Assembly (NCBI GenBank): GCA_963805995.1
Contig: CAWDWL010000041.1
Coordinates: 12,769-76,768, forward strand
Reading direction: 5' to 3'
DNA length: 64,000 nucleotides
Origin: an uncultured Pseudomonadota bacterium
Lineage (GTDB): Bacteria; Desulfobacterota; Binatia; Binatales; Binataceae
A program made the position numbers and the translations under genes. Positions within the stretch are counted from its first letter, which is position 1; each line of letters starts with the position of its first letter. The notes beneath the pieces are model-generated. The model worked only from the letters and a program-made list of their open reading frames with translations. It ran no database searches and had not been told where the DNA came from. Of the stretch, positions 1-45,121 are shown one piece after another.

Positions 1-1001
1 TATTCGATTTCGGGCGCCATCGCGGTCTGGTCAATCAGCGTAGCTTCGAGGCGGCGGCGGCGCTGGCCCAGGAACAGATGGTCGATCTCGATCTTGTTTT
101 CGAGGTATCGCAGAGTTATTTCAACCTGCTTGCGGCTCAGCAAATGGTCCGGGTCTATGAAAAGGCCGTCGAGCAGCGGCGGGTCCACCTGCATGAGGCC
201 GAGGTGCGGACGAAAGCCGCCTTGCGGCCGGAACTGGATGTATTCGTGACCCGGGCGGAATTGGAGCGCGCCCAACTCAACCTGGTGCGGGCGCGCAACG
301 CCACCTCCGACGCCAAGGTTCAACTCGACAATTCCATGGGTTTAAGCGATCAGGACACCTCATATACGCCGGCAGATGTGCTCACCTCCGGCAAGGCATC
401 CGACAGCATGAAAGATCTGGTCGCGGAGGGTCTGCGTCTGCGGCCTGACCTCATAGTGCTGAAGAATGAAGCGCACGCGATGGGCGCGCAAATAGCGGAG
501 TACCGCAGCGACTATTTTCCCGAGGCGGACGCCATGGGAGGGTATAACGCGATGGGCACCGGCCTTCCCGCGGCTAATAATTTCAACGTCGGACTGGTGA
601 TCACCTGGCCCATTTTCAACGGCTTTCTCACCACCCATCAGGTCGAAGAGGCGCGCCTTAATCAGCAGGCGATCGAGAACGCCACCAAGGACTTGCAACA
701 GCGGGTAATTCTTCAGGTCAAAACCGCCTTTCTCAACTGGGAGTCTTCGCGCCAGGAGATTCAGCGCGCCAGGGGCGCACTGGAGGCGTCACAAGTGGAA
801 TTGGAACTTGCGGAGAAGCGGTACGATGCCGGCCTGACCAGCATCGTCGAACTCGAGGACGCCCAGCGGCATTACACTTTCGACGACGCCGAGTACGCCA
901 ATGCGCTTTACGGCTACTCGCTCACCAGGGCTGCCGTCGACCACGCCACCGGCAGGTTGCTCTCGTACGTGCACGGCATCCACACCGTTGCCGGCAACTG
1001 A
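1..1001 (+). CDS. TolC-family outer membrane efflux protein, C-terminal part (5' end lies outside the window)
   Basis: The reading frame is open from base 3. The translation is rich in long Ala/Gln/Glu/Arg helices (YFNLLAAQQMVRVYEKAVEQRR..., ELELAEKRYDAGLTSIVELEDAQRHY), typical of the duplicated TolC/OMF repeat. Confidence 0.75.
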   Translation, partial: FDFGRHRGLVNQRSFEAAAALAQEQMVDLDLVFEVSQSYFNLLAAQQMVRVYEKAVEQRRVHLHEAEVRTKAALRPELDVFVTRAELERAQLNLVRARNATSDAKVQLDNSMGLSDQDTSYTPADVLTSGKASDSMKDLVAEGLRLRPDLIVLKNEAHAMGAQIAEYRSDYFPEADAMGGYNAMGTGLPAANNFNVGLVITWPIFNGFLTTHQVEEARLNQQAIENATKDLQQRVILQVKTAFLNWESSRQEIQRARGALEASQVELELAEKRYDAGLTSIVELEDAQRHYTFDDAEYANALYGYSLTRAAVDHATGRLLSYVHGIHTVAGN

Positions 1002-1059
1002 TTAGCCGCGAAACGAAAATAGCTGTAAGGGCCACAACCGTATGCGCGCACAGGCTCTT

Positions 1060-1097
1060 TTCTCACCCTTTCCTCGTCCGAGGAGAGGGTGAGGGAG
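1060..1097. repeat. REP-like hairpin of the CCCTCACCCT/CCCTCTCC family
   Basis: tctcaccctttcctcg-tcc-gaggagagggtgaggga forms an imperfect palindrome. The motif recurs at 18942, 23565 and 29579. Confidence 0.5.
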
Positions 1098-1194
1098 AGC
1101 TTACACGTCCCGATCCAAGGCACACGTTTCGCCCTCCGCCCCCAGCGGTTCGCGCTAGATCTGCCAAGAATTATTGTCGCTCCGGGATTGGTTA

Positions 1195-2392
1195 TCAGCC
1201 CTTGGGCAGCTTCAGGACGCGCTCGCCGATGATGTTATGCTGAATTTCGCTGGAGCCCGCCGCGATGGTCATCCCGCGCGCGGTCAGGAAGCGGCCCAAC
1301 CAGCGCCCGCTTTCGACTGCGCCCAGCGAACCGGACCGGAGTTGATGGAACGGTCCCATCATCTCATCGGCAAACATCTGGACCCGCAGGTTAAGTTCCG
1401 TGGCATGCAGCTTGCCGTAGGAGGTCTCGGGTCCCGGGACGCGCTTTTTAAGCAGATTGGTAAGGCCGCGGTAACGGATAAGCCGCAGAGCATTCCGCTT
1501 CGATCGCGAACTGCGCCAGCTTCTGCCGCACGTAGGGATGCTGGTACGCGGTGACGCCCTCAAACTGAACGTGCCTGGATAGTTCAATCAGGTCCTCGAC
1601 CGATTTCTGCACCGGATGACGGGTGCCGCCCGAGGCGCGCTCGTACATCAGGGTCGCGATCGAAACCTGCCAGCCTTTGTTGACCTCGCCCACCAGGTTC
1701 TTAAGCGGCACCTTGACGTTGTCATAGAAGACCTCGTTGAATTCCGAACCGCCGGTCATCTGGCGCAGCGGACGCACGGTGACACCGGGGCTCTGCATGT
1801 CGACCAGCAGGTAAGAGATACCCATATGCTTGGGCGCCTTGGGGTCGGTGCGCACCAGCAGCACCTGCATGTGGGCGCGCTGGGCCATGCTGGTCCAGGT
1901 CTTCTGTCCATTGACCACGAAGTAATCGCCCTGAATCTCGGCGCGGGTCTGCAGCCCGGCGAGGTCCGAGCCGGCGTTGGGTTCGGAGTATCCCTGGCAC
2001 CAGATCTCTTCGGCGTTAAGCATCTTGGGCAGGTAGCGTTTACGCTGCTCGTCGGTGCCCAGGAAGATCAGCGTCGGACCGATGCGATCGATCGCCAGCG
2101 TGTTGGCGCCGTATATCGGGAGGCCCAGCCGCAGCGCCTCGTCCTGATAAATGGCCTGTTCGACGACGCTGGCGCCGCCGCCGCCCCATTCCTTGGGCCA
2201 GTGCATCGCGACATAACCGGCGTCGCAAAGCCGCCGATGGTATTGAAGCAGGCGGTTCCAGCGGTCGTCGCTGTCGGTGCCCGCGTTGAGGTCGTCGCTA
2301 CGGCCGAATACTTCCGCCTTGGTGCGCTCCAGGAACGAACGCAGCGTATGGCGGAATTGTTCCTGCTCGGGTGTGTAATTGAAGTCCATCAA
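1195..2392 (-). pseudogene. Acyl-CoA dehydrogenase, split by a frameshift as assembled
   Basis: ORF 1448..2392 encodes the N-terminal and middle ACAD domains (EIWCQGYSEPNAGSDLAGLQTRA...). ORF 1195..1587 carries the C-terminal signature (TIAAGSSEIQHNIIGERVLKLPKG). The frames join as ...FAIEAE|ALRLIRYRGL... if one base near 1492 is removed. Confidence 0.85.
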
Positions 2393-2589
2393 CCGGCCTC
2401 GCTCAGCTCAGGCCCCAGCGCCTTGGCGGCAAGCGCTGATTGCCCGACGCCAATCGCCGGAGCGATTTCTGAGCAGAGAGTAGTAGGGCACTGCTGCGCA
2501 TGCAAATGGGGCAGCGCGGGCGATGGTTTTGAAATTTAATCTTAACACGATATGAACTTGGTCAAACCGCTGAAGCGATAGGAGAGAAA

Positions 2590-3582
2590 ATGCGCGCTGC
2601 AGTTTGTCCCGCGGTTAAAGGCAAATGGGAGGTCCGCGAAGTGCCGACTCCGGAGCCCGGGCCCGGCCAGGTGCTGATTCGGGTTTACGCCAGCGGACTG
2701 TGTTACACGGACATCCACGAAACCCACGGCGATATGCCGATGGGGTTAGAGCCACCGTGCATTTTCGGACACGAAGGAGCGGGCGAAGTCGTGGCCGTGG
2801 GAGCCGGAGTGACGGCGCGCAAGGCGGGCGATCGGGTCGGCGTGGTCTACTTTTTCGGCAGTTGCGGACGCTGCGAATGGTGTCTGCGCGACAAGGGATT
2901 TTTTTGCCGCGAGTTTGTCGGGACCGGCGCTCACATCCAGGGTGCGCACGCCCAATTCATGGTCGCTCCCGCCGCTTCCACCATGATCATTCCGGACAAC
3001 GTCAGCTACGAGCAGGCGGCGCCGCTCTTCTGCGCCGGCTACACGGTGTGGTGCGGGATTCGGATAGCCGAGGCCAAGCCGCATGAAACCGTCGCCGTGG
3101 TTGGGATCGGCGGCCTGGGCCACCTCGCGATCCAATACGCCAAGGCGGCCGGCTTCCCCACTATCGCGGTGACCCATTCGCCCGACAAGATTGAGATGGC
3201 CGAAGAGTTGGGCGCGGATCAGGTGGTCGCCGACGGCCGTGCGCTGAAGAAGGCCGGCGGCGCGGATGTGATTTTACTCACCACCAACTCTTTTGCGGCG
3301 TGCGGCGACGCGCTTAAGGGTATCCGGCCTGACGGCCGCGCGGTCTCGATGGGCTTTGACGCGACGGGTCCCATTCCGGTAACCGCGGAGTTCCTCTACC
3401 GTCGCGGCCGCCTGATCGGCTCGGTGCACAACGGACCAGAGTATCTCTATGAGGCGCTTGACTATGCGGCGCAAGGCAAAGTGAAGGTGATGACCGAGCT
3501 CTATCCGCTGGCGGAAGCGGCGCGGGCGTTTGAGCGGGTGGAGAGCGGCGCCGTACGCTTCAGAGCCGTACTAAAGCCGTAG
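2590..3582 (+). CDS. Zinc-dependent alcohol dehydrogenase (MDR superfamily)
   Basis: Contains GLCYTDIH and GHEGAGEVVAVG zinc-site motifs, a structural-zinc Cys cluster (CGRCEWC) and a GIGGLGH Rossmann motif. An aggaga RBS precedes the ATG. Confidence 0.85.
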   Translation: MRAAVCPAVKGKWEVREVPTPEPGPGQVLIRVYASGLCYTDIHETHGDMPMGLEPPCIFGHEGAGEVVAVGAGVTARKAGDRVGVVYFFGSCGRCEWCLRDKGFFCREFVGTGAHIQGAHAQFMVAPAASTMIIPDNVSYEQAAPLFCAGYTVWCGIRIAEAKPHETVAVVGIGGLGHLAIQYAKAAGFPTIAVTHSPDKIEMAEELGADQVVADGRALKKAGGADVILLTTNSFAACGDALKGIRPDGRAVSMGFDATGPIPVTAEFLYRRGRLIGSVHNGPEYLYEALDYAAQGKVKVMTELYPLAEAARAFERVESGAVRFRAVLKP

Positions 3583-3611
3583 GGCTGTACCGGAACCAGC
3601 GCGTATCGACT

Positions 3612-4542
3612 TTAGCGTCCGGCCAGAATGGATTTCATCTGTGGCAACGCGGAAACCCGCGCCGTGAGTTCCCGGGCTTGTTCATTGGAAAGCGGGCGAT
3701 TGGGCGGCAGGATATTGTTCCATCCGGGATTGCCGCTGATCGCGCTCATCAGATGCTTGAGTGCGGCCGGAATCGGATAGGTTTGCAGCGCGATGCGGAC
3801 GTCATCCAATTCCTTTTGCGCCGGTTGCGCATCCTGACCCGCACGCCATGCCACGATAGACCGCCTGGGCGAGCGGTCCCGAAACGTTGACGTTCGCGGA
3901 AATGCAACCCGCGCCGCCGGCGTGCAGATTGGTCAGCAGATGCTCTTCATTGCCGGAAAAGATCTCCAAGCCTGGAAACTCATTGAGCAACCGCGCCGAG
4001 TAAGCCCAATCACCCGAACTGTCTTTGAGGCCCGCAATCGTCGATGGATATTCCGCCGTCAGGCGTCCGATCAGTGCGGGCGTGATCGGCACGGTCGAGA
4101 GCTGCGGATAATGGTAGAGATACAGTCTCAGGCGCGCATCGCCGACATGTGCAATGAGCTCGGAATAAAATGCGAACAGCCCGTCTTCCGAAGGGTCCTT
4201 GTAATAAAACGGCGGCAGCACCAGAACGCCGGCGGCGTTTGCCGCAACCGCGGCGCGGGTTACTTCAACCGCGTCGGCCAGCGCGCAAGAGCCGGTCCCG
4301 ACGATGAAGCGAGCGGTGGGAATCGCCGACTGCGCGCAGGCATCTATCAACAGCACACGTTGCCTGACGGACAAGGAGTTCCCCTCTCCGGTGGTGCCCA
4401 GCGGGACCAGCCCGTCGCAACCGTGGTCTAGCAGCCAGCGGCAGTGCGCGATAAAAAGCGCGGTATCGGGTTCGAGCGTCCGCGTCAGCGGGGTCAGGAC
4501 CGCCGCAAAAACACCGTGCGGAGGGGATGAGGCTGCGTCCAT
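3612..4542 (-). pseudogene. DapA/DHDPS-family pyruvate-dependent aldolase, split by a frameshift as assembled
   Basis: ORF 3802..4542 has the family N-terminus (VLTPLT...GCDGLVPLGTTGEGNSLS...). The last ~75 codons continue in ORF 3612..3854. The junction is consistent with one extra base near 3852. Confidence 0.7.
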
Positions 4543-4664
4543 AAAACCTGTTTATCTGTGGGAACCGGCTCGCACAATGCCGGCGGTTCAGTAGCGGTTT
4601 CGTCGTGCTTTTGGGTCAATCTTCCTGGCCCTGGTGTTATTGATTGCGCTGATAACCGCCTGCC

Positions 4665-5838: not shown

Positions 5839-6606
5839 TCAACTTCCGGCGATTACCGGATTGCGCAGGCAGCCGATCCCTTCGATCTCTACCTCAACCA
5901 TGTCACCCGGCTTTAAAGGACCCACGCCCGGCGCCCCGGTCGAAATAACGTCGCCGGGCAAAAGCGTCATGATGTGCGAGATCCAACTGACCAGAAAATC
6001 GGGTGAGTATATTAGATCGTCGGTGCGCGCCTTGACGCGCACTTCGCCATTGACGCGGCATTCCGTGTCGAGGTTGGAGGGATCGATATCCGTCGCGATT
6101 ACCGGACCAAACGGTGCGAAAGTGTCGAACGATTTGGCATGAAACATCATAGGCGTGCCCACGGTCTTGCGCAGCTCGCCAGCGGTGACATCGTTCACGC
6201 AGGTATAGCCCAAAATATAGTCGGACGCGCGTTCGCGTTTGACGCGCCGGGCCAAGCGGCCAATCACGATGCCAATTTCGCCCTCGTGATTGATGTAGGT
6301 AAGTTCGGGCGGAAAGATGATCGGATCGCCGGGATTGTTCACGGCGGTTGAAGGCTTGAAGAACAGGGTCGGCCTTTCAGGCGGCTGCGCCCCGGCGGCC
6401 AAAACCCGGCGCCGGCCCGGACCAATCGCGATCACCTTGCTCGCCGCGGTGGGGCTCAGCAGCTTGACCGACGCCAGCGGGATCGATTTGGCGCCCGGTG
6501 CAGGCCTAAGCGCGTGAAGTTCGCCTTCCAGCGGTTGGATCTGGTCGTCGCCTTGAAGCGATCCATGTTGGACGCGATCATTGCGGACAAAACGTACCAA
6601 CTTCAT
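5839..6606 (-). CDS. Fumarylacetoacetate hydrolase (FAH) family protein
   Basis: The C-terminal FAH domain is recognisable (HEGEIGIVIG..., SFDTFAPFGP, LLPGDVISTGAPGVGPLKPGD). A gaggag RBS is present. Confidence 0.85.
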   Translation of the reverse strand: MKLVRFVRNDRVQHGSLQGDDQIQPLEGELHALRPAPGAKSIPLASVKLLSPTAASKVIAIGPGRRRVLAAGAQPPERPTLFFKPSTAVNNPGDPIIFPPELTYINHEGEIGIVIGRLARRVKRERASDYILGYTCVNDVTAGELRKTVGTPMMFHAKSFDTFAPFGPVIATDIDPSNLDTECRVNGEVRVKARTDDLIYSPDFLVSWISHIMTLLPGDVISTGAPGVGPLKPGDMVEVEIEGIGCLRNPVIAGS

Positions 6607-24490: not shown

Positions 24491-25103
24491 GCTCTGCTCC
24501 CCACTGGTTAGCGATTTATCCGGAATATCCGATTCGAAATCCTGCCTTGGATCCGTCCCGACACCGGCCAGTTGGTAAACGCGCGCTGTCCGGAGCCTTG
24601 CTTCCCGGGCGTCAGATAACTCTCCAGCCAGGAGCAACCGGTGTAATTGGCCACGTCTTGTATCAAACGTCCGCCGGTTTTACCAGACCCTGGTGCATCG
24701 GTAAAGCGAGCATGCGGCATTGGCGCACGCTCCTCAGTGTTAGAGAGTCCCGAAGCGCCGCAGAACTGACCCATTGTTGCGGAACCTGCCTGACTCAAAA
24801 TAGTAAATAAGAATTTACGGTTGCACGGGATGGTTATTGGTGCGAGTATGGGGCGGTTTCAAAATCGGAATAGTCCTCTTTCCTTTGCTAAAGGTCGATT
24901 GATTGGGCTGCTGCGCGCCCGCGCCGCAGGCGGCTTTGGGGAGCGGCCCCTGGAGAACGGCTGAATTTCAAATTCGTGAAATCCGCCCCCAGCCGAGCCT
25001 GAAAGGACCGTGGACCAAAACCACGCCCGAATCCCCACCGGGGGGCGGGCGCAGCACGAATGGAAATGCGGATTCAAGAAGTGCTGGCGAAAAGGAGCTG
25101 TGT

Positions 25104-28100
25104 ATGAAGGGCAAAAAGACGGGAATGACGGTCTTAACCGTCGTCCTCACAACTTTGATGCTTGGGTTTGGCCTGACTTTGCCAGCACGTGCGGACACGG
25201 TCTTTAAGTGCCCCAGCGAAGGCCCCTTGAAGCAGGGCGGAAACGCCAACCTTGACCTCAAGGTGGACGGCGTCTGTGATGTGACTGGTACACCCGAGTC
25301 ACCCCGCACAAGTTTGTTGTTCGTGTTCAGAAACGTGAACATCGTCGGCGGTGGGAAGTTGAACTTTAAGGACGGTCAGGACATCGACTTTTATGCCGAG
25401 TCCATCCTGGTCGAGAACAAAGGGATCCTCCAGGCGGGTTCTCCCACGACGGCAGGAGCATTCAAATCGAGGCTGACGTTCCATCTGTGGGGAAAACCGA
25501 CGGATGACGGGATCGAATGCCAGAGCGGCGGAGCGACGCCATGCGGCATCCCCGCCGAGCTCTGGGATGGGGCTTTTGCCAACCCAGGCATGGCCACCCA
25601 TATGAATATGGCCATGAAAACGCCGCCCGATCTTCCGAAGAACGCAGCGTGCAAATCCTCTCCCGAAACCTATAGCGACCTGCTTCCGGGCGGCGATTGC
25701 TTTTATCAGTATGAAGTACAGGACGTCCAGGACAGAACCAACGGCAAAAAGGCCTACTTTGGCCACAAAGTCTTAGCCGTTTCCTTTGGCGGCACGCTCA
25801 ACCTCTATGGAGCCAAGGGCGCCATCTATCAGGCCCCCGGTCAATGTGATCCGGAAGTGCCTGCGAACGAATGCAATCCCGCCAACACGGGCACCAGTTG
25901 GAGACGCCTTACCGGTGTCGCTAACGGCGGCAAGACGCTGACCTTGAATAATCCCACTTCATCCTCTCCTAAGGTTGATTGGAAGAAGGATGACCATGTG
26001 GTGGTCACCACCACCGACTATCTTGCTTCCCATTCGGAGGAGCGGATTCTCGAAGAAGATGCCGCGAACAACCAGATTGAGCTGACCGAGGCGCTGACGC
26101 ACCAGCACAACGCCAGTGTCTATCCGATTCCCGCAACGGTTCCGGGCGGCGTCGGACCGGTGAATGACCCGCTTGTTCCCGACGTCAAACGCGCGGTCGA
26201 CACGCGCGCGGCCGTCGCCTTGCTGAGCCGCAACATAAAGATAGTCTCCGAGGGGGCGACTCCTGAACCGGATTCAAAGGTCGACACTTTCCCTCCGACC
26301 GCCGGCAATTTCTATGGCGGCCACACGATTGTGCGGCAGGGCTTCGCCAGCTACCAGGTGCAAGGAGTGGAGTTCTATCGGCTTGGTCAGGGCGGGATTA
26401 TCGGGCGTTATCCGGTGCACTTCCATATGGCACGGCGGACGCCGCAGCAGACCAACCCGGCCAATGGGCCGTTGAACTATCTCAAGGACAGTTCCATTCA
26501 CGAATCCATGACGCGCTGGGTCACGATCCACGCTACCCAGGGGATGTACGTCGCCCGCAACGTCGGCTTCATGTCGATTGGCCACGGTTTCTTCCTCGAG
26601 GATGCCACCGAGATCAACAACAAGCTCTACGCCAACATCGGCATCTCCGCGCTGGCGGCGATTAAAAACAAGCAGAACCCGCGGCAGGTCCCGGGCATCC
26701 TGGCGGACACGTCCACCAATAGTTTTGGCCCTTCTGTCGACGCCATGCCGTACCGCTCCGACTTCAACCATCCCACCGTTTTCTGGATCATGAATGGCTG
26801 GAACGATTTCCAGTACAACCTGGCGGTCGGAGCTGCGACCTGCGGCGCCTGCTATTGGTGGCTTCCCGGATCCGACAGTGGGCCCTCGCAGTACGAATGG
26901 TGGGATGGCTATGCCTCGCAGCAGATCTGGGACCCGCAAGGGAACACGAACAAGGACACCAGCAACGTTTCGGGCGCCGGTTTTACGCCGCTGAAAAGTT
27001 TCGTTGGCAATTCGTGCGTCGCTGCCCAGACTTCGTTTCAATCGGTGGGCGCCGCCAATGCCTGCCTCGGAGTGGCGACGCAAGATGCCGGAGGCTTCAC
27101 GGCGGTACCGTCGCCTGCGCCTCCCGCACCTACAGACATAAACAGGTTTAACATCTACTATCCGATCATCACCGGTAAGCATAATCCGACGATCTGCCCC
27201 GGGGCCGATTCTTCCTCCGTGCAGTGCGGCATTACCAAGACCAACAATCCGCAACTGTGCGACAACAGTACCGCGAAGGGTTGCACCGCAACGGTGCTCG
27301 ATCATTACACCACTTCGTTTAACTGGGCTGAAACCAACTTCTCGGCGGTTTGGTTGCGGGGACAGTGGTTCCTGGTGCGCAACAGCGCGATTACTGACGT
27401 ACAAACCGGAGGTTTGAACTTCGTGACCGGTGGGGGCTATACCCGTTCCGACGTTGCTTTAGGCTATTGGTCGTTAATACGCAAGAGCCTATTCGTCGGT
27501 CACACCCAGCCGCTGGACGGCCCCAATAAGTATGCACTTCCCAGCGGACCTTTTAATCCATCCAGCAACCTGAAATGTGATGGCAATGGCAACAATCTTT
27601 GTGCATCGGCCGACAATGGAGCCGTCTTTATTGAGAGTGTGTTTCCCGGACAGCGGCTGTTCAACATCTACGACGGCCCGGCGTTCCAGGAGTACAACGC
27701 ATACCTCGACATCACTACCACACCGATCACGGATTGCGCGCCAAACCCGAACGGAGTATGCGCCGGCAGCGCGTTCCCCTCTTCCCGCAACATGGGCGTG
27801 CTGCACGATCTAACGGGAACGGAGGCAAAAAAGAATCAATGCTATCTGCCCAATGCCGCAATCGCCTGGAAGCAGCCAAACGGCTTCTACTATCCACCGG
27901 CATTCAACTCCGACAACCTGTGGTTTGATAATGTCGAAATACGTCACTTTGTAGTGGAGCCGTTCTTCAAGACGGTGGGGTACGACCCATTCGTACAAAA
28001 CCAGACGGAAGTCGAAAAACGGTACTGCACCTTCAACAGCGGTGAGTTCACCGCCAACTTCAATGATATCGACCGGCAAACCGTGCTCAACGATGACGAC

Positions 28101-29357
28101 GGCACGCTGACCGGTCTGCTGGGAAAAAGCCCAAATGGAGAATTCAAGCCGACTATCTCGATCAACGAGGATAACTACTTCACCGGCCCGTTAATCACAC
28201 CCGAATGCCTCTCCGACCAAGGCGTGACCCCGCTGAACCCCAACAAAAGAGTATTTACCGCGAGAACCAGTCCCTATCAATGGTTGAGCACCGCGATTAC
28301 GGCCGGTTGCGGGATTCAGAATGGGACGAAGGCTCCGAACCTGTTGCAGTGCCTAAACAAAGACAACGAGGTTCAATGGGGCCACGATTGTGCCAATAAC
28401 CGCTGCCGAGGCGTAGTGCTATATCGCGAAGATCTCACCAAAGACGAGATCGGAGCCGCGCCCCTGCCCCAGATCCGTATGATGGGACAGGATACCGCCC
28501 AGCGGAGCACTTTGACGCTGAATCATGGCTCATACTATATCGATACCACCCAGAGTTGCACGTCACAGATTGGAGGTTCGAATCCGGGTAAGTGTCCGGT
28601 GTGTACGCCTGCCCCGGGTCCGAATCCCCCAAAAGGCTCGGACTGCAGGTACTGTAAGCCGGGTACGGACTGCTGGGCAAACCCCGCCGATATTGATCCC
28701 ACCCCGTGGAACCCCTCGTTGTTTGTCGGCGGTGAGACTTACTATGTGTACTTAATATATGCGGACAAAGACACCAAGCAGACCTACGATTTCTACGTTG
28801 GGCCGAATCAAGGGAATAAATATAAGGTGGAAGCCCAACTGGCCGACATACGCAGCGCAAACTATGTGTTCACGTCAGCCGGCAATGTGGATTGGTTGAA
28901 AAGCGAATATCAAGCCGGCACCGGGACCGTGCATGTCGCGGTGAACCTGTCAAGTCAGGCCAAGGCCTTCACGAACTCTAAAGCCAATTTCTGCCAGCCA
29001 CGCAGCTTCTGCATGCCTTCCGGCGACCGATGTGTATGTCAACCGGGAACCGATTGTCATGATGACGCGGTATGCTCGTGGGGGCCCAGGGAGCTCGATT
29101 GTCCAGTGGATGCGGGCGGCAAAACGGCCTGCTACGCCTTCAGCATTACTATGCCGACGGACTTTGTACCGCCGCCAAAACCGCTGGTGCCGGATGCGGA
29201 GAATAAGCTTGAGACTCTCTTTAATCTGTTCGAAGTCAAAGATGATTATTTCAAACCCAACAGCGTGACGTTCACGAATAAGGGACCGAACGACAAAGCG
29301 TTTGATTCCGGACCCGCCTGCAAGTACGCAACGGTTCCGTCGCAGCTGGCCCAGTAA
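25104..29357 (+). CDS. Giant (1417 aa) secreted Cys-rich protein with G8-like and CEMIP/TMEM2/PKHD1-like right-handed beta-helix motifs
   Basis: An aaaggag RBS precedes the ATG at 25104. Signal peptide ...GFGLTLPARA|DTV. N-terminal G8-like segment: GGGKLNFKDGQDIDFYAESILVENKGILQAGSPTTAGAFKSRLTFHLWG. Motif VQGVEFYRLGQGGIIGRYPVHFHM at ~26350-26430. Many Cys residues throughout. Confidence 0.8.
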   Translation: MKGKKTGMTVLTVVLTTLMLGFGLTLPARADTVFKCPSEGPLKQGGNANLDLKVDGVCDVTGTPESPRTSLLFVFRNVNIVGGGKLNFKDGQDIDFYAESILVENKGILQAGSPTTAGAFKSRLTFHLWGKPTDDGIECQSGGATPCGIPAELWDGAFANPGMATHMNMAMKTPPDLPKNAACKSSPETYSDLLPGGDCFYQYEVQDVQDRTNGKKAYFGHKVLAVSFGGTLNLYGAKGAIYQAPGQCDPEVPANECNPANTGTSWRRLTGVANGGKTLTLNNPTSSSPKVDWKKDDHVVVTTTDYLASHSEERILEEDAANNQIELTEALTHQHNASVYPIPATVPGGVGPVNDPLVPDVKRAVDTRAAVALLSRNIKIVSEGATPEPDSKVDTFPPTAGNFYGGHTIVRQGFASYQVQGVEFYRLGQGGIIGRYPVHFHMARRTPQQTNPANGPLNYLKDSSIHESMTRWVTIHATQGMYVARNVGFMSIGHGFFLEDATEINNKLYANIGISALAAIKNKQNPRQVPGILADTSTNSFGPSVDAMPYRSDFNHPTVFWIMNGWNDFQYNLAVGAATCGACYWWLPGSDSGPSQYEWWDGYASQQIWDPQGNTNKDTSNVSGAGFTPLKSFVGNSCVAAQTSFQSVGAANACLGVATQDAGGFTAVPSPAPPAPTDINRFNIYYPIITGKHNPTICPGADSSSVQCGITKTNNPQLCDNSTAKGCTATVLDHYTTSFNWAETNFSAVWLRGQWFLVRNSAITDVQTGGLNFVTGGGYTRSDVALGYWSLIRKSLFVGHTQPLDGPNKYALPSGPFNPSSNLKCDGNGNNLCASADNGAVFIESVFPGQRLFNIYDGPAFQEYNAYLDITTTPITDCAPNPNGVCAGSAFPSSRNMGVLHDLTGTEAKKNQCYLPNAAIAWKQPNGFYYPPAFNSDNLWFDNVEIRHFVVEPFFKTVGYDPFVQNQTEVEKRYCTFNSGEFTANFNDIDRQTVLNDDDGTLTGLLGKSPNGEFKPTISINEDNYFTGPLITPECLSDQGVTPLNPNKRVFTARTSPYQWLSTAITAGCGIQNGTKAPNLLQCLNKDNEVQWGHDCANNRCRGVVLYREDLTKDEIGAAPLPQIRMMGQDTAQRSTLTLNHGSYYIDTTQSCTSQIGGSNPGKCPVCTPAPGPNPPKGSDCRYCKPGTDCWANPADIDPTPWNPSLFVGGETYYVYLIYADKDTKQTYDFYVGPNQGNKYKVEAQLADIRSANYVFTSAGNVDWLKSEYQAGTGTVHVAVNLSSQAKAFTNSKANFCQPRSFCMPSGDRCVCQPGTDCHDDAVCSWGPRELDCPVDAGGKTACYAFSITMPTDFVPPPKPLVPDAENKLETLFNLFEVKDDYFKPNSVTFTNKGPNDKAFDSGPACKYATVPSQLAQ

Positions 29358-38973: not shown

Positions 38974-41142
38974 CTAACCGGCGGCGAACACTCCTTGCGC
39001 CGTACTGGCGAGGTCAACCAGGCGCCTCAACACCTGGCGCGCCCCGCGTGATGGTGCGGTCTCAAGATTAGGGTCCCTTCGCAGCCATTCTTTGGCAAGA
39101 TCGCGAAGGTGCAAAATTGTATCAAAATCGTTCATCCAATGTGCGAACCGCAGCGGCAAGGGGCCAGCTTGACGCGCGCCAAAGAGATCGCCTGGTCCGC
39201 GCAGGTCCAGATCCGCCTGCGCGATTTCGGCGCCTGACATTTTCTCAACTAATACTTTAAGTTTAGTTTGGGCCACGGGCTCAGTCTGACCCGTCATCAC
39301 CAGGTAGCAATAACCGTTGTCGGTGCCGCGCCCGATTCGCCCGCGCAATTGATGAAGCTGGGCCAGGCCATAGCGCTGCGCACCGATTATGATCATCACG
39401 GTGGCGGACGCCACATCGATTCCCACCTCGATCACAGTCGTCGAGATGAGTACCTGCAAATCGCCGTCTCTGAAGGCGCGCATCACCCGGTCTTTCTCGG
39501 CGCTATCCAGCCGTCCGTGCATCACTCCGACGCGCAATCCGGCCAGCGCGCCCTTTTGCAGGTCCGCCGCAGCCGTGATCACCGCCAGCTCCTGCTGCTC
39601 GTCGCTTTCGATCAGCGGCAGGATGCAGTAGGCACGATTGCCTTTGGCCACCTCTTCGCGCAGCCGCGGCCACACCTGCCCCAGGTCCCCCTCCTCGATC
39701 AAGGCGGTGGTGACGGGCGGACGTCCGGCGGGACGCTGGTCGAGCATCGTAACTTCCAGGTTGCTGAGCAGCACGCGCGCCAGGCTGCGCGGAATCGGCG
39801 TCGCGCTCAGCAACAGCATGTCGGCGCTGGGACCCAAGGCCTTGAGCCGCACGCGATCGAAAACTCCAAAACGATGCTGTTCGTCGATTACCGCGAGTCC
39901 GAGCCGTGGTATCTCGACGGTGCGTTGAATTAGTGCGTGGGTCCCGAAGACCACTCCCGGAGCGCCGCCGCGCAGCCACGCCAGCACCTGCCGGCGCTGG
40001 GCGGCGGGCAGGTTGCCGCATAGCAGCCGGGCTTCGAGACCGCGGTCTCCGCACAGGCGGGCAAAGGTCGCGTGATGTTGCTCGGCGAGCAATTCCGTCG
40101 GCGCCATCACCGCCGCCTGGTAGCCATGGGCAATCGCGTTGAGCACCCCCCAAAACGCGACCACCGTCTTGCCGCTGCCGACGTCGCCCATCAGCAGCCG
40201 ATTCATCTGGGCGGGATGCGCCATGTCCGCGCGAATTTCTTCGATCGCACGCTGCTGCGCCGCCGTAAGCTCAAACGGCAGGCTGCTGGCGAAGCGATCG
40301 GCCAGTTCGGCGCCACCGTCAAACGCGATTGCGGGCCGGCGGCGGGCGCGTTCGCGATCGATTTCGAGAGCCAATTCAAAGGCGAACAACTCGTCGGCCG
40401 CCAGGGCCTGATGGGCCGGGCTGGTGCCGTTACGCAACGCCTCCAGATCGGCGTCGGCGGGCGGCTGATGTAGATAGCGCACCGCTTGCGCAATCGAAGG
40501 CAAGTCAAGGCCGCCGCGCAACTCGGCCGGCAACGCCGCGGGCAGATCCCCGGCGGCGATTAGGGCGTTGCTGATCGCGGTCCGCGCGAGGCGCTGACCG
40601 ACGTAATCCCCGATCCGGTAAAGCGGCTGTAACGCCTGGGGTTGGTCTTGACCAGGCAGTTGTACCTCAGGATGAACGATCTCCAGCCGCCCGTCATTGC
40701 CGCGGGTTGCCTTGCCATGAACTACCACTTCGCTGGCGCCGCCAAAGCGCTGGCGCAGATTGGGTGCCGCGTTGAACCAGATTACGCGCAGCTTGCTCCC
40801 CCGGTGATCCTGCAGCCATCCGGTCAGAAGCCGGCGCCAGCGCGAACCGCGCATCGGCCGCTCGCTGAGATTGACCAGACGGCCGGTGACCGTAACCACT
40901 TCGTCCGCATTAATCTCATCTATTACTTTAGATTTACGCCAATCAGCATATCGCGACGGGAAGCAGAAGAGCAGGTCGCCAATCGTGCCGATACCGCGCT
41001 GCGCCAAGGCAGTGGCGCGTTTGGGGCCGATTCCCGGCAACTCTGAAAGCGGATTGGCGGCGCTAAGCTGTGCCGACGAGGCGCGCGCACGATGCGGACC
41101 CAACGGGTGGTCGGCGATTTGGTCGATTGCGGCCACGTCCAT
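38974..41142 (-). CDS. recG: ATP-dependent DNA helicase RecG
   Basis: Wedge domain followed by SF2 helicase motifs (GDVGSGKT, DEQHRFGV, SATPIPR, QLHQLRGRIGRG). Confidence 0.95.
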   Translation of the reverse strand: MDVAAIDQIADHPLGPHRARASSAQLSAANPLSELPGIGPKRATALAQRGIGTIGDLLFCFPSRYADWRKSKVIDEINADEVVTVTGRLVNLSERPMRGSRWRRLLTGWLQDHRGSKLRVIWFNAAPNLRQRFGGASEVVVHGKATRGNDGRLEIVHPEVQLPGQDQPQALQPLYRIGDYVGQRLARTAISNALIAAGDLPAALPAELRGGLDLPSIAQAVRYLHQPPADADLEALRNGTSPAHQALAADELFAFELALEIDRERARRRPAIAFDGGAELADRFASSLPFELTAAQQRAIEEIRADMAHPAQMNRLLMGDVGSGKTVVAFWGVLNAIAHGYQAAVMAPTELLAEQHHATFARLCGDRGLEARLLCGNLPAAQRRQVLAWLRGGAPGVVFGTHALIQRTVEIPRLGLAVIDEQHRFGVFDRVRLKALGPSADMLLLSATPIPRSLARVLLSNLEVTMLDQRPAGRPPVTTALIEEGDLGQVWPRLREEVAKGNRAYCILPLIESDEQQELAVITAAADLQKGALAGLRVGVMHGRLDSAEKDRVMRAFRDGDLQVLISTTVIEVGIDVASATVMIIIGAQRYGLAQLHQLRGRIGRGTDNGYCYLVMTGQTEPVAQTKLKVLVEKMSGAEIAQADLDLRGPGDLFGARQAGPLPLRFAHWMNDFDTILHLRDLAKEWLRRDPNLETAPSRGARQVLRRLVDLASTAQGVFAAG

Positions 41143-41492
41143 TCATACCATGACGGCCGGTATCCGTTCGAATCCCCCCGTATCAATCGAACCCCTATGG
41201 ATTAACATTTTTTACCTGCTCAATGGTCCTACCCAGTTGGAATCGGGTGTTCGGTCGGTTGCCAGAGAACATATTTTTTCCCCGATGCACAACTGGCGCG
41301 TATAAAACCGGCCATAGTGGTTAGTTTCCTGATGGCAAGTTAATTGCTGCATCAATCTTGGATACCATGCCAGCCTCAAAGAAAAGTCTTGTAAACGAAT
41401 GTGGCCCGGGGACGTTCAAAGATCAGAATCAAAGCTTAACCGCCCCGGATGGGGTGCGGTTCAGTACCAAGTCGGGTTGTGGGAGTACTCCA

Positions 41493-43604
41493 ATGAAAAA
41501 ACTGGTTTTGGCGCTCACAGCGCTGTTGTGGCTGTCGGGTGCATTGCTAACCAATGCGCCGGTTTCGGCGCAAATGAACCGCCCGCCCGGGTGGGGCGAC
41601 TACGACAGCGGTCGTCAATGGCGCGACGCCAGTTGGTGGTGGACCAACCATCCCGATTGGGTGCGCCAGCATCACCCCACCTGGTGGGGCGAATTCGATC
41701 AAAGCCGCACTTGGCGACCCGCGTCGTGGTGGTGGCAAAACAATCCCGATTGGGTCCGCCGCCATCACCCGGAATGGTGGGGTGACTGGGACCGCGACCA
41801 CGTCTGGCAGCCCGCCAACTGGTGGTATCAGCAAAATCCGAGCTGGATTTACCAGCATCATCCCGAATGGTGGGGCGCCCCGTACGAGGGACAGTGGTAT
41901 CCCGCCGCCTGGTGGGTGCAGAACTTCCCGCAGTGGGTGCAGATGTATCATCCCGAATGGTGGGGCGCGGTGAACCAGGGACAGTGGTATCCCGCGTCAT
42001 GGTGGTACGCCAATAATCCCAACTACATCGCGTCCAACCACCCGGAATGGTGGGGCGACCCGGACAATCAAGGCGTTTGGCAGCCGTCGAGCTGGTGGGC
42101 GCTGAACAATGCCGCCGCCTTGAGTAACAATCATCCGGATTGGTGGGGCGACTGGGACAGTAACCACGTCTGGCAGCCGGCGGGATATTGGTATCAGGTC
42201 GAGCCGCAATACGTCTATGCCAATCATCCGGATTGGTGGGGCGATTGGGACGACCATCATCGCTGGTACCCGGCGTCCTGGTGGTACCATAACAACCCCG
42301 GGTGGGTCGCGCAGAACCATCCATATTGGTGGGGTGACGCCGATGAGCATCACATGTGGCACAGCGACGTGTGGTGGCAGCAGCACAATCCGAACTGGGT
42401 AGCCCAGCACCACCCGAATTGGGTCGGCACTTACGATCAGCAGCATCGATGGCGCGACCTGAACTGGTGGGCGGCTAAGAACCCGGCCTACATTCAGCAG
42501 AACCATCGGAATTGGCTTCCGGCGATGCAGCAGGTGATCGCGCATCAGCAGTCGCAGCAACAGCGCATCGCGCAGCTCAGCCCGGCGATCGTGGCGGCCC
42601 GTGAGCAAGCAATCGGGCGCAACCGCGGCCTGGCCCAGGCGGCCGCGGCCCAGCGGGCGGCGCAAATGCGTATGCGCCAGCAAGCAGTCACTCTGCGCGC
42701 CCGGCAGCAGCGCCAACAACAGATGGTGCTGCGCGAACGAGCGACCCCGCAGTCGCTCCAACAGCAGCACGCCGCCGGACTGAACGCGGCGCCAGGGACC
42801 GCGACCGAACGCGCACGCCAGCAGGCAATCGAAAATGCGCAACATGCCGGCCATCTGAATCCCGAACAGCAGCGGGCCGCCCAAGCCGCCGCTATGCGCG
42901 ACAATCAGCTCAAGGCGTCGCAGAACCAGCAGCTGGAACAGCAGCGCGCTGGTCAAGCCGCGGCGGCGCGTGAGAATCAACTAAAGGCCTCTCAGTCTCA
43001 GCGCCTGGAGCAGGAGCGCGCCGCCCAAGCTGCGGCGCAGCGCGAAAATCAGCTCAAAGCGTCGCAGTCACAGCGCCTGGAACAGGAGCGGGCCGCTCAG
43101 GCTTCGGCCGCGCGTGAAAATCAGCTAAAGGCCGCCGAGTCTCAGCGCCTGGAACAGGAAGCGGGCCGCTCAAAGCTCGGCTCGGCCGCACGTGAGAATC
43201 AGCTAAAAGCCGCCGAGTCTCAACGGCTGGAACAGGAAAGGGCCGCTCAAGCTTCGGCGGCGCGTGAGAACCAGCTAAAGGCGGTCCAGTCGCAGCGGCT
43301 GGCACAGGAGCGCGCGGCCCAAGCCGCAGCTGCGCAGAGAACCGGCCAGACGCACCTGGAGCAACAGCGACTCGAGCAGCAGCGCATCCAACAGCAGCAC
43401 AAGCTGCAGCAGCAGAGCATGGAAGGAGTCCGTCGGCAACAGGCAGCGGCGATGGCGCACGCGCAGCAGCGGGCGGCAGCCAACCGTGCGACGCTCCACC
43501 GCGCCGCGACGATGCAGCGCCCGATGCCGGCTCCGGCCGCGCGTGCAGCGATGCCGGCTGAGCGCCACGTCCAGGCGACGCCGCCCAAACGGCACGTTGA
43601 ATAG
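41493..43604 (+). CDS. Secreted Trp/His-rich tandem-repeat protein with a Gln/Ala/Arg/Glu-rich repeat (coiled-coil-like) C-terminal half
   Basis: A gggag RBS precedes the ATG at 41493. Signal peptide MKKLVLALTALLWLSGALLTNAPVSA. About 10 repeats follow of HP(E/D)WWG(D)WD..H.WQPA.WW.QNP.W...., then about 7 repeats of RENQLKASQSQRLEQERAAQAAA. Confidence 0.8.
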   Translation: MKKLVLALTALLWLSGALLTNAPVSAQMNRPPGWGDYDSGRQWRDASWWWTNHPDWVRQHHPTWWGEFDQSRTWRPASWWWQNNPDWVRRHHPEWWGDWDRDHVWQPANWWYQQNPSWIYQHHPEWWGAPYEGQWYPAAWWVQNFPQWVQMYHPEWWGAVNQGQWYPASWWYANNPNYIASNHPEWWGDPDNQGVWQPSSWWALNNAAALSNNHPDWWGDWDSNHVWQPAGYWYQVEPQYVYANHPDWWGDWDDHHRWYPASWWYHNNPGWVAQNHPYWWGDADEHHMWHSDVWWQQHNPNWVAQHHPNWVGTYDQQHRWRDLNWWAAKNPAYIQQNHRNWLPAMQQVIAHQQSQQQRIAQLSPAIVAAREQAIGRNRGLAQAAAAQRAAQMRMRQQAVTLRARQQRQQQMVLRERATPQSLQQQHAAGLNAAPGTATERARQQAIENAQHAGHLNPEQQRAAQAAAMRDNQLKASQNQQLEQQRAGQAAAARENQLKASQSQRLEQERAAQAAAQRENQLKASQSQRLEQERAAQASAARENQLKAAESQRLEQEAGRSKLGSAARENQLKAAESQRLEQERAAQASAARENQLKAVQSQRLAQERAAQAAAAQRTGQTHLEQQRLEQQRIQQQHKLQQQSMEGVRRQQAAAMAHAQQRAAANRATLHRAATMQRPMPAPAARAAMPAERHVQATPPKRHVE
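41580..42525 (+). repeat. In-frame tandem coding repeat, period ~90-93 nt, about 10 units (Trp/His-rich)
   Basis: The units start PPGWGDYD, HPTWWGEFD, HPEWWGDWD, HPEWWGAPY, HPEWWGAVN, HPEWWGDPD, HPDWWGDWD, HPDWWGDWD, HPYWWGDAD and HPNWVGTYD. Confidence 0.85.
42894..43335 (+). repeat. In-frame tandem coding repeat, period 72 nt, 6-7 units
   Basis: Unit starts (cgYgaRaaYca) are at 42897, 42969, 43041, 43113, 43191 and 43263. One unit is 78 nt. Confidence 0.9.
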
Positions 43605-43633
43605 CTGCTAATTAGATCGCCGCTTCCGAACCA

Positions 43634-43681
43634 GGGCGGGGCGGCTCGGTACACCACCGAGCCGCCCCGCCCTATTTTTTC
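43634..43681 (+). terminator. Rho-independent terminator
   Basis: gggcggggcggctcgg-tacaccac-cgagccgccccgccc followed by tattttttt. Confidence 0.85.
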
Positions 43682-43741
43682 GCCGCGAAAGTAATCGTGG
43701 AACTACGCATTCTAACTGGTGGACGCCCGCCGCTCAGGCCA

Positions 43742-45121
43742 CTATTTCATGATCTGGGTAAGCCCGCTCGGCAGGGCATAGAGCGACAGGTTGTGATACT
43801 GCACGGGAACGGCGGAATTGAGGGTCGGAGGCGAAGCGGGCCACGCGACACTGGCGTGATCGGCTTGTACGTCGTAAATAACCGCGTTTTCACCACCGGA
43901 CGGGAGCACGAAGCTCTTTTGGCCGTTTAAGTTCGATGGAATGGCAGTGGTCGGGCCCCGGAAGACGAATTGTAACTTCCACAGCTTCTCGTTTCGATCC
44001 CACGTGTCAACATGGTCCGCGGTGTATGCCAACTGCCGGTCCAGGTACAGTACCCGATGGGAATAACAATAGAACGACTTGGTATCCGTATTGGGCACCA
44101 GATCCAGGACGTAAACATCACGAAGTTCGAATTTACTCCGCTGTGGTCTTATGAATCCGCTCGCGTGCCCTCCATATACCCAATTGGCCAGGTAATTCTC
44201 CCTCTCGCTGGCATGGGCGGTCCAGCCGCTGTGGGCGACAAAGAGCATTTTCTTCTCCCCCAGGAAATGCGGGATGAACCAGTTCGGTATGCCGCTGAAG
44301 CCGCCCCTTTGATCGTCATTGGTCCAATCTGTCCCTTGCAGCGGAGAACAGCGCGCCGTGCTGGATAATCGCAGGGAACGGCGCAATGAAGGCAGAAACA
44401 CGTAGAGTTCGGGAACGCGGTTCGGGTCGTCGGGAAAAATCGCCATCGACGTAAGATACTTCGACTGCTCGGGGGTTATCTGCTGATCGTAAATAGAGAG
44501 ATAAATGCCGTTGGACTGCGGATTGGTAATCGGCTCGCCCGCGTCGCTGACATGAGACAGCTTGAAAAATAATTGCATTCCGATGCTGCCGGTGGCATTG
44601 AAAAAGCGGTCAACAAATGCGACCGGATATGACGACCAATACATGCTCGGAATATACGTATAGTAGAGGTCGTACAGCAGCTTTCCCCCGATATCCGGAT
44701 CGGTCGGATTAAGGAATGGAACCCCGGCGCCGTAATTCTTGATGTTGTAGCTTCCGTTGGCCAATTTGACCAGTTGAGCCTGACCGGAATATTTTTCGGT
44801 GTCGGCCAGGTACTTGGTGGGAAGCTGGGTTGGAAGCGTAGGGCCAACCTCTATGTAATCGTCAGGACCGCTTCCCATCTTCCAGAAGTACTTGCCGCTC
44901 ATAAATGCCTGGAGGCTGATTGGCATGAATTTACGGTACTGCTGCCAGTTAGCGGTCGTGATTTTGGTACCGACCGGAACGGTTTCCGCCGAATTGGCGG
45001 GAACAAACTCATCGATTAGCTTTTCATTGAAAGCGTCAAGGTCCTGGGCGACCGCGGGCAGGGCCGGCAACGCCAGCGCCACGGACAGAACGACGAATGG
45101 TAGGAAGATTGTAGGCTTCAT
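43742..45121 (-). CDS. DUF1329-like (LolA-fold-like) secreted protein
   Basis: Signal peptide MKPTIFLPFVVLSVALALPALPAVA. The N-terminal region (GTKITTANWQQYRKFMP...NIKNYGAGVPFLNP) resembles the DUF1329 family as I remember it. ~459 aa, the typical length. Confidence 0.55.
   Translation of the reverse strand: MKPTIFLPFVVLSVALALPALPAVAQDLDAFNEKLIDEFVPANSAETVPVGTKITTANWQQYRKFMPISLQAFMSGKYFWKMGSGPDDYIEVGPTLPTQLPTKYLADTEKYSGQAQLVKLANGSYNIKNYGAGVPFLNPTDPDIGGKLLYDLYYTYIPSMYWSSYPVAFVDRFFNATGSIGMQLFFKLSHVSDAGEPITNPQSNGIYLSIYDQQITPEQSKYLTSMAIFPDDPNRVPELYVFLPSLRRSLRLSSTARCSPLQGTDWTNDDQRGGFSGIPNWFIPHFLGEKKMLFVAHSGWTAHASERENYLANWVYGGHASGFIRPQRSKFELRDVYVLDLVPNTDTKSFYCYSHRVLYLDRQLAYTADHVDTWDRNEKLWKLQFVFRGPTTAIPSNLNGQKSFVLPSGGENAVIYDVQADHASVAWPASPPTLNSAVPVQYHNLSLYALPSGLTQIMK

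Follow-up and report, generated by a model that had tools for sequence, protein, structure and literature searches.

ZraP, CpxP, and Spy of Escherichia coli are small soluble periplasmic proteins made on demand. The zraP gene is sigma-54 dependent under ZraSR, a two-component kinase with an NtrC-type activator, and ZraP binds Zn via its His-rich ends. The octarepeats (PHGGGWGQ) of the prion protein PrP bind Cu2+ via His, with Trp in the second shell. Both systems offer parallels to a protein encoded in a stretch of 64,000 nucleotides (nt) from a member of Binataceae (assembly GCA_963805995.1, contig CAWDWL010000041.1, positions 12,769 to 76,768), hereafter the window. Its coding sequence (41493..43604, plus strand, stop codon included, from the open reading frame (ORF) call) specifies 703 amino acids (aa): an export signal, an array of ten Trp/His units, and a long Q/A/R-rich tail. 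The protein is designated below as the Trp-repeat protein. The favoured reading, to which a probability of roughly 0.3 is assigned, is that it is an inducible periplasmic scaffold binding cations via an Asp/His/Glu lattice. Three points go beyond the initial annotation of this DNA: a conserved sigma-54 promoter, two unit types in fixed order, and arrays of 7-11 units throughout a bacterial family.

The likeness to ZraP/CpxP/Spy lies in the export signal and the conserved sigma-54 promoter, and is extended to ZraP by relatives of the Trp-repeat protein, in the His-rich tails of paralogs and in one array gene divergent from an operon for a kinase and a sigma-54 activator. The architecture differs, since a Trp-core array with a long Q/A/R tail stands here against a helical hairpin oligomer there; no sequence relationship is seen, and membership of the LTXXQ-type family was rejected for lack of a match in Pfam or NCBIfam. 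With the prion octarepeats the protein shares tandem short repeats of His, Pro, Trp, Gly, and Gln (the junction here is HHPEWWGD), but this is an analogy of composition only: the units here are 31 aa long and predicted to be folded, and there is no homology.

The ten units occupy 41589..42512 (plus strand), each matched by the unit hidden Markov model (HMM) at 28-46 bits. They are 30-31 aa long and start at aa 30, 61, 92, 123, 153, 183, 214, 245, 276, and 307. Between aa 27 and 345, 59 of the 319 residues are Trp (18.5%), accompanied by 25 His, 30 Pro, and 29 Asn; at a background of 1.5%, the probability of at least 59 Trp in 319 residues is 6e-45. The initial annotation had described about ten tandem Trp/His units with about 60 Trp in ~310 residues, and both estimates hold. 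Its figures for a single unit, 5-6 Trp and 2-4 His, are approximate, the ranges counted by hand from the unit sequences being 4-7 Trp and 1-6 His. Tandem Repeats Finder (TRF) reports no Trp array at the DNA level, where the units are too diverged.

The consensus of this array is xWGD[YF]DxxHxWxPAxWWWxNxPxWVRxHHPE. In the seed profile, built from 100 units, the consensus reads xWGDYDxxHxWxxAxWWxxNxPxWVxxHHPE and G3, W11, and W17 are invariant; the Trp-unit family is defined by at least one unit fitting this seed consensus or alignment, which includes the window protein. Column frequencies were taken over 614 units from 62 arrays. Trp dominates positions 1 (0.90), 2 (0.87), 11 (0.98), 16 (0.94), 17 (1.00), 18 (0.61), and 24 (0.86). 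G3 (0.99), F/Y5 (0.75), P13 (0.66), A14 (0.81), P22 (0.80), and P30 (0.98) are also conserved. Among polar positions, D4 reaches 0.80, D6 0.69 (Y 0.22), H9 0.50 (G 0.32), and H28 0.51 (N 0.36), while at the junction H29 reaches 0.96 and E/D31 0.86.

The units can be divided into two types: type A with GD[FY]DxxHxW[RH]PA, 31 aa long, and type B with G[DA]xYQGxWYPA, 30 aa long. Positions 6, 8, 9, and 12 covary strongly. His28, tested as a ligand pair, shows no correlation with unit type. The order of types is conserved, as AA-BBBB-AAAAA or AA-BBB(B)-AA(A), and roughly as AAA-BB(B)-AAAA in the window's group. A strict classifier reads the window array as o-o-A-B-B-o-A-A-A-A, where units 1, 2, and 6 are near type A.

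The initial annotation could not place the repeat in any described family, and the searches bear this out. The window protein has no match in Pfam-A or NCBIfam at E <= 10. Searches of Pfam, NCBIfam, and PDB sequences with the whole protein, the array, the tail, and profiles of one unit and of 2-3 units gave nothing credible; the best PDB sequence match (E = 0.069) is a designed alpha-repeat protein and is not credible either. Profile searches with the unit alignment likewise found no characterised repeat family; a match to one would have contradicted the annotation. When 149 distinct other family members were compared with Pfam, the only recurring match was a sub-threshold one to a haemophore family, and single members matched unrelated families. 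In the searchable full-text literature, the unit motif strings are absent and nothing relevant on Trp-rich bacterial repeats was found. As far as HMMs can tell, the annotation was also right that the repeat is not of the choline-binding, YXWGXW, or WD type: WD40, YXWGXW, and other described Trp repeats have no Pfam or NCBIfam match at E <= 10, also among the 149 other members. Judged from sequence, the Trp-unit proteins are a new, lineage-restricted repeat family.

The initial annotation had proposed structure prediction of a few units. AlphaFold2 models of the whole array (315 aa, 23-row alignment; predicted local distance difference test (pLDDT) 77.6, predicted template modelling score (pTM) 0.50) and of units 7-9 (103 aa; pLDDT 76.8, pTM 0.54) agree on the anatomy of a unit: strand G3-Y5, loop 6-10, strand W11-13, helices 14-20 and 22-28, and a turn from P30 to W1 of the next unit. 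Each modelled unit thus opens with a beta-hairpin, continues with two helices of 7 residues, and closes with an HPEW turn, and the three-unit prediction shows the same hairpin and two short helices per unit. The hairpin loop holds D6/H9 in type A and Y6/G9 in type B. Because aliphatic residues are almost absent, the core of the modelled unit would have to be mostly Trp.

Foldseek searches against 350,542 PDB chains found nothing below E = 1.2 with the 315-aa model and nothing below E = 3.7 with the three-unit model. The weak top matches of the former were tandem zinc fingers and LDLR-A modules (E 1.2-9.7, template modelling (TM) score < 0.15). C2H2 zinc fingers and LDLR-A are similar in being modules of about 30-40 aa that open with a beta-hairpin and are arranged head to tail, but the unit here has two helices and a Trp core, with neither Cys ligands nor disulfides; these families were rejected on the lack of Cys in the protein and on the Foldseek values. 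Ankyrin repeats (33 aa) are similar in unit length and in the order of a hairpin or loop and two short antiparallel helices, but their consensus is unrelated and their TPLH and GH motifs are absent here; there was no Pfam match, and no ankyrin appeared among the Foldseek matches of the 315-aa or 103-aa models. The choline- and cell-wall-binding repeat (CW_binding_1) and aromatic solenoids are likewise tandem aromatic-rich repeats of exported bacterial proteins. CW_binding_1 consists of 20-aa beta-hairpins, whereas the 31-aa units here include two predicted helices, and it has no Pfam match. Within reach of Pfam, NCBIfam, and PDB, both the sequence and the predicted fold are apparently new, the models being of moderate confidence.

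A tandem row of small, extremely aromatic modules is also what a polymer-binding protein might look like, which was the main idea of the initial annotation. The modules would then hold glycan, peptidoglycan, lipopolysaccharide, or exopolysaccharide through CH-pi stacking, anionic polymers would be the target of the basic tail, and the protein would be a structural or adhesive envelope component or spacer. In the central type-B units the hairpin tips carry Tyr, Gln, and Gly, residues of the kind that carbohydrate sites typically offer, and 7-11 units would provide multivalency. The basic low-complexity tail, with lineage-specific repeat expansions as in surface proteins and copy-number variation between strains, points in the same direction. 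Most of the Trp is probably needed for the core and not exposed, given how few aliphatic residues there are. The protein matches no carbohydrate-, choline-, or peptidoglycan-binding family or fold, signals for anchoring or sorting are absent, and at the sampled array loci no glycan-related or envelope-biogenesis gene is a conserved neighbour. Nothing specifically favours glycan or peptidoglycan binding, and this explanation is regarded as possible but less probable than cation binding.

The family is rare. A search of 5.8 billion clusters with the array returned only 39 proteins, all annotated as 'hypothetical' and none with a Pfam domain; Binatus or Binataceae appears in the labels of several, and many of the 39 are fragments with frameshifts. 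The exact window protein has no record in public assemblies. The unit profile, run with HMMER on 1.84 billion representatives, found 195 clusters at E <= 1e-3. The 178 database proteins of the family mostly have one or two units, many of them with an N-terminal helical 'HP...NP' domain. A signal-peptide-like N-terminus is present in 135 of the 178 (median length 183 aa), and about 30% of these end in a His-rich stretch, such as HEEHIEHHEAAIEHHEERMEHHENEHGHDHDHH.

Long arrays were surveyed in genomes, along the lines that the initial annotation had suggested. A pattern scan of 185,579 species-representative genomes gave 66 loci, and six-frame unit searches located 66 array genes: two tandem genes share one locus, another locus gave no unit matches, and the genes thus sit at 65 of the 66. 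Among the 66 array genes, 61 have 7-11 units in one frame, four are frameshifted, and one has only two units. Arrays of 7-11 units are thus the norm across Binataceae, a whole bacterial family, and unit number varies over this range among intact arrays.

These arrays fall into several paralogous groups. The window's group has 10 units and a long basic Q/A/R tail and includes L009-L013, L023 (two copies), and L051 (9 units). The upstream neighbour is recG in L009-L012, L023, and L051, while carB-carA follows downstream at three loci, L010, L012, and L051. The two genes of L023 are in tandem (1288-2115 and 3730-4656, with 9 and 10 units), each with a sigma-54 motif. A second group has 11 units, about 560 aa, and tails of [FL]ERQH repeats, and a third set has 7-9 units and tails of AEERRASETHR or AEHQAEAHHMEQPH repeats. 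Several metagenome-assembled genomes (MAGs) have two or three paralogous array genes at different loci. The locus records are from Binataceae, Binatus, or 'delta proteobacterium' MAGs of soil, peat, permafrost (palsa), and coal-fire soil, with one labelled Acidiferrales. Flanking genes are 75-94% identical across differently labelled MAGs, which argues for a single lineage of array carriers. NCBI places Binataceae in the candidate phylum Binatota, which is described as yet uncultured (PMC8262859); the Binatota genome paper (PMC8262859) mentions neither tryptophan nor repeats.

The neighbourhood of array genes is not an operon: a conserved operon was rejected, as neighbours differ between the paralog groups and the short members. 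Near the 11-unit paralog, two genes recur. A NicO-like Ni/Co transporter gene with a His-rich loop is found 30-5300 bp downstream in 25 genomes (loci within L016-L049), convergent with the array gene and matching PF03824 at 26.6 bits against a gathering threshold of 27.7. A PobA-like flavin adenine dinucleotide (FAD) monooxygenase gene lies upstream on the opposite strand at 22 loci. This synteny is real, but it concerns one clade and the opposite strand and is absent from the window, and is therefore only a hint.

The PobA-like neighbour and the HP/NP domain are relevant to another explanation, that the units bind planar ligands such as haem or other tetrapyrroles, quinones or pyrroloquinoline quinone (PQQ), or soil phenolics and humics, through pi-stacking on Trp and with His as axial or hydrogen-bond ligand. 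The protein would then carry such ligands in the manner of a haemophore, or soak up toxic aromatics. The Trp/His-rich composition is suited to this, and the source MAG names indicate peat, permafrost (palsa), and other soils. Peat and such soils are phenolic-rich habitats. The PobA-like aromatic hydroxylase adjoins the 11-unit paralog in 22 genomes, but on the opposite strand and in one clade. The other support comes from the helical N-domain of the 2-unit paralogs, with HP/NP repeats of the form F..FL..HP....L..NP.L.YD...R..HP.L..FL..HP.VW in the N-terminal 50-150 aa of P0009, P0097, P0117, and P0044. It matches the mycobacterial haemophore family in two independent libraries: Pfam MHB (PF16525) at up to 21 bits (cut-off 27.4) and NCBIfam TIGR04529 at 24.6 bits (E = 3.4e-5, cut-off 32). 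All of these scores are below threshold and in a domain that the window protein lacks, and the haemophore (MHB) relationship was rejected. The likeness to the Rv0203 family is limited to secretion and to these matches of the paralog N-domain. The HP/NP profile fails to retrieve Rv0203 from PDB, the window protein itself has no match to the MHB or Rv0203 haemophore profiles in Pfam and NCBIfam, and hhalign gives the Trp unit and the HP/NP domain a probability of 0.4%, indicating that they are unrelated. Planar-ligand binding is held to be doubtful, and less probable than polymer binding.

An independent assembly in long-read style, from the near-identical strain L075 (ENA ERZ25039604), reproduces the array; it retains the order of recG, array gene, and DUF1329 gene and is 97% identical to the window over 41100-43343, with only single-base indels. 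These indels are probably sequencing errors, because they also split recG. No unit-scale indel was found in the Trp array between L075 and the window, and an assembly collapse or expansion artefact, the case that the initial annotation had named as speaking against it, is not borne out. Frameshifts occur in many other database and genome copies (P0002, P0004, P0006-P0008, P0011, P0014, P0018; L035, L041, L071, L072); in the assembly that was examined for this, L075, the split recG points to homopolymer errors of long-read assemblies (TGGTGGGG runs) and not to pseudogenes.

Compared with its orthologs, the array protein is 63-74% identical, with saturated synonymous sites and a ratio of nonsynonymous to synonymous substitution rates (dN/dS) of roughly 0.12-0.2. 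Unit i of one array best matches unit i of the other, with 9 of 10 units on the diagonal against L009 (51-77% identity), while units within the array average only 45% identity. From this positional orthology, the low identity within the array, and the dN/dS ratio, the array is read as an old one that has escaped homogenisation and is kept by purifying selection. Frameshifts break many database homologs into fragments and affect four of the 66 genomic arrays, and one may ask whether the array is a compositional or assembly artefact or a decaying pseudogene with no real gene product. The 61 intact single-frame arrays, the low dN/dS at saturated dS with unit-by-unit orthology, the conserved signal peptide, ribosome-binding site, promoter, and terminator, and the reproduction in L075 leave this explanation a negligible share.

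Sigma-54 promoters are recognised by GG at -24 and, at a set distance, GC at -12 (TGGCAC-N5-TTGC). When the upstream regions of the window gene and six orthologs were aligned, only the blocks GGCA and TTGC were conserved, and together they form TGGCA-N6-TTGC, the sigma-54 -24/-12 consensus. The element recurs in every gene of the orthologous group, 9 of 9 (the window gene, L009-L013, both genes of L023, and L051), 240-312 nt upstream of the first unit, against a background density of 0.017 per kb per strand. The window copy is TGGCAAGTTAATTGC, a -24/-12 (RpoN) type element at 41333..41347 (plus strand), about 146 nt upstream of the start codon, with a predicted transcription start at 41358-41360 and a 5' untranslated region of about 134 nt. 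A longer reading frame from a TTG at 41358 is unlikely to be used, because this codon coincides with the predicted transcription start. The number of matches in the window alone is not significant: two occurrences of TGGCA-N6-TTGC in 64 kb compare with 0.63 expected, and 11 of 100 shuffles reach two. The other match, at 1401-1415 (plus strand), may be by chance; the ORF downstream of it (1616-2539) has no Pfam match and overlaps a minus-strand ORF.

Outside the window's group, the strict motif is absent from the 11-unit group, and the 7-9-unit groups have only one, off-register match (L057). With a relaxed motif, L072 and three genes from one group of 7-8 units also match. There is no sigma-70-like site in 41100-43800 and no riboswitch or leader by Rfam in 40900-43900. 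Activation of a specific enhancer-binding protein is thus probably needed before the array gene is expressed. No activator gene with GAFTGA lies in the window or within +-6 kb of the orthologous loci, and a search for activator sites found no inverted repeat shared by the upstream regions. One locus (L008/L072) is different in having an operon at 701-3937 (minus strand) for a HAMP-HisKA kinase, an NtrC-type sigma-54 activator, and a TPR/SH3 protein. The array gene at 6001, which is frameshifted and has a near-consensus -24/-12 motif, is divergent from this operon, an arrangement that recalls zraP-zraSR.

The tail begins with a Q/A/R-rich segment (aa 346-468, 42528..42896, by composition), continues with six tandem 24-aa repeats RENQLKASQSQRLEQERAAQAAAA of 72-nt period (42897..43334, by repeat inspection and TRF), and ends with aa 615-703, rich in A, R, Q, and P by composition (43335..43601), all on the plus strand. 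TRF delimits the 72-nt repeat at 42864-43335, with 6.5 copies of 76-79% match, of which six are full 24-aa copies. The low-complexity C-terminal repeats of the initial annotation therefore exist, but as six copies of 24 aa and not as about seven of 23 aa. The same region is about one copy longer in L075 (5449-6377) than in the window, which is either a real copy-number polymorphism or an assembly difference. The tail is Q/A/R/E-rich, basic, fast-evolving, and probably helical. Its last 63 aa (+10/-3) are basic, as had been noticed. The first ~100 residues after the array look conserved within the orthologous group when judged by eye, and farther on the orthologs carry different, lineage-specific tail repeats.

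The array and the tail have opposite net charges, -18 and +25, a polarity kept in all orthologs. Such a block polyampholyte might assemble with itself, the Arg/Gln tail of one molecule pairing with the acidic Trp array of another by cation-pi and electrostatic contacts, to form a periplasmic or extracellular gel or a nitrogen-rich deposit. The very high Trp and Arg content, the side-chain nitrogen of 0.65 per residue (0.31-0.44 in neighbouring genes), and the low-complexity, fast-evolving tail are consistent with it. In the other paralog groups, however, the tails are neutral or acidic (-24 to +3), so that the charge-block design is no family trait, and the strict positional conservation of units points to a protein with a particular fold and surface, more than to one that is simply sticky throughout. 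Nor is there any precedent, and self-assembly is considered improbable, slightly more so than the binding of planar ligands. Such a nitrogen-rich cost profile would be odd for a sigma-54 gene if the promoter were nitrogen-regulated.

Export, as the initial annotation had proposed, rests on a Sec-type signal peptide of aa 1-26 (41493..41570, plus strand, from sequence features). The N-terminus, read directly as MKKLVLALTALLWLSGALLTNAPVSA|QM, has an AxA cleavage site (VSA|QM), and the orthologs have equivalent AxA|Q sites. The Trp-repeat protein has no Cys in its 703 aa and no lipobox; being without Cys, it is not a lipoprotein. No membrane anchor is predicted. The host is presumably diderm.

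If the protein is a cation-binding scaffold, the steps could be as follows. Expression would occur only when the sigma-54 activator fires. The soluble product would be exported to the periplasm or beyond, the periplasm being the more plausible destination than secretion. The N-terminal half would form a rod or string of ten small modules with near-all-Trp hydrophobic cores. This rigid or semi-rigid scaffold would display an acidic lattice of Asp, His, and Glu at the hairpin tips (D6...H9) and at the [H/N]-H-P-[E/D]-W-W-G-D junctions, and the lattice might reversibly bind cations, namely divalent metal ions and/or protons. The basic Q/A/R tail may hold the protein to anionic envelope polymers by electrostatic attraction, or may serve as a spacer between the two. 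The role would then be that of an inducible envelope buffer or chaperone, like the ZraP/Spy stress proteins or the PrP copper octarepeats.

Several observations were counted in favour of this scaffold. Besides the export signal and the lack of a membrane anchor, they are the net charges of -18 for the array, with 25 His, and +25 for the tail, the conserved D4, D6, H9, H28, H29, and E/D31, and the location of D6/H9 in the modelled loop. The sigma-54 promoter in 9 of 9 genes and the HisKA plus NtrC-type operon at one array gene were counted as well. On cation binding itself there are only indirect hints: the lattice, the NicO-like neighbour of one paralog group, and the paralog tails, which are His-rich in the 2-unit paralogs and carry [FL]ERQH or AEHQAEAHHMEQPH His/Glu repeats in the array paralogs.

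A number of points weigh against the cation-binding scaffold. No metal-binding family or motif was matched in Pfam, NCBIfam, or PDB sequences. Type B replaces D6/H9/R12 by Y6/G9/Y12, and a structural switch of the hairpin fits this equally well; H29-P30 could be a purely structural helix cap. The argument from His tails concerns paralogs only, as just 10 of the 358 residues in the window protein's tail are His. The NicO-like gene is convergent, sub-threshold, restricted to one paralog clade, and absent from the window. Genes for bacterial enhancer-binding proteins occur near only three other array loci, at or below chance by a rough estimate.

A bolder proposal takes the unit as a new fold with a near-all-Trp core and the A-B-A rods of 7-11 units as a sigma-54-controlled envelope device of Binataceae. 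It would serve either as a multivalent buffer of metal or protons or, more radically, as a continuous track of stacked indoles for redox transfer (hole-hopping) or ligand-shuttling across the periplasm. This is put forward as a speculative possibility, on a par with polymer binding. The probability left over by the cation-binding scaffold and its four rivals (polymer binding, planar ligands, self-assembly, artefact) belongs to something else.

About 60 copies of the costliest amino acid are spent on each protein, and purifying selection on the array nevertheless acts in at least 65 species. Together with the dedicated sigma-54 control, this selection in spite of the cost suggests an important envelope role. 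If the models are right, Trp packing takes the place of aliphatic residues in stabilising what would be a new small-domain fold, a matter of interest for protein folding and design. No long-standing question is directly addressed, and the host is uncultured. The lineage that carries the arrays is globally distributed in soil and peat, and the array can serve to mark the Binataceae lineage. As a repetitive scaffold that carries His and fluoresces intrinsically, the protein might also find use as a sensor or biomaterial.

A ribosome-binding site GGGAG (41481..41485, plus strand, read from sequence) precedes the ATG of the Trp-repeat gene, at 41493, by 7 nt. The gene is monocistronic, with an intrinsic terminator of its own at 43633..43683 (plus strand; 18-bp stem with 15 GC pairs, 5-nt loop, and T-run), and in both respects the initial annotation was correct. 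The recG gene lies upstream and is divergent. Downstream, at 43742-45121 on the minus strand, is the convergent gene that the annotation had called DUF1329-like (PF07044, E = 6.7e-22); its product is a DUF1329/LolA-like secreted protein. This neighbour is absent from the sampled orthologous loci and recurs only in the near-identical strain L075, so it is given no functional weight; the gene seems to have been inserted, in this lineage only, between the array gene and carB.

Long ORFs overlap the array on the minus strand (41515-42324 and 41997-42980) and in other plus-strand frames (41399-41785 and 41782-42016). All are rich in R, P, G, and T; rather than being genes, they most likely arise from the TGG- and CAG-rich composition of the repeats. 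The 42001-44000 bin has an AT skew of +0.23. Elsewhere in the window, and unrelated to the Trp-repeat gene, an ORF of 1484 aa (24903-29357, plus strand) has G8 and CEMIP beta-helix domains, which suggests a large secreted glycan-active or adhesin-like protein.

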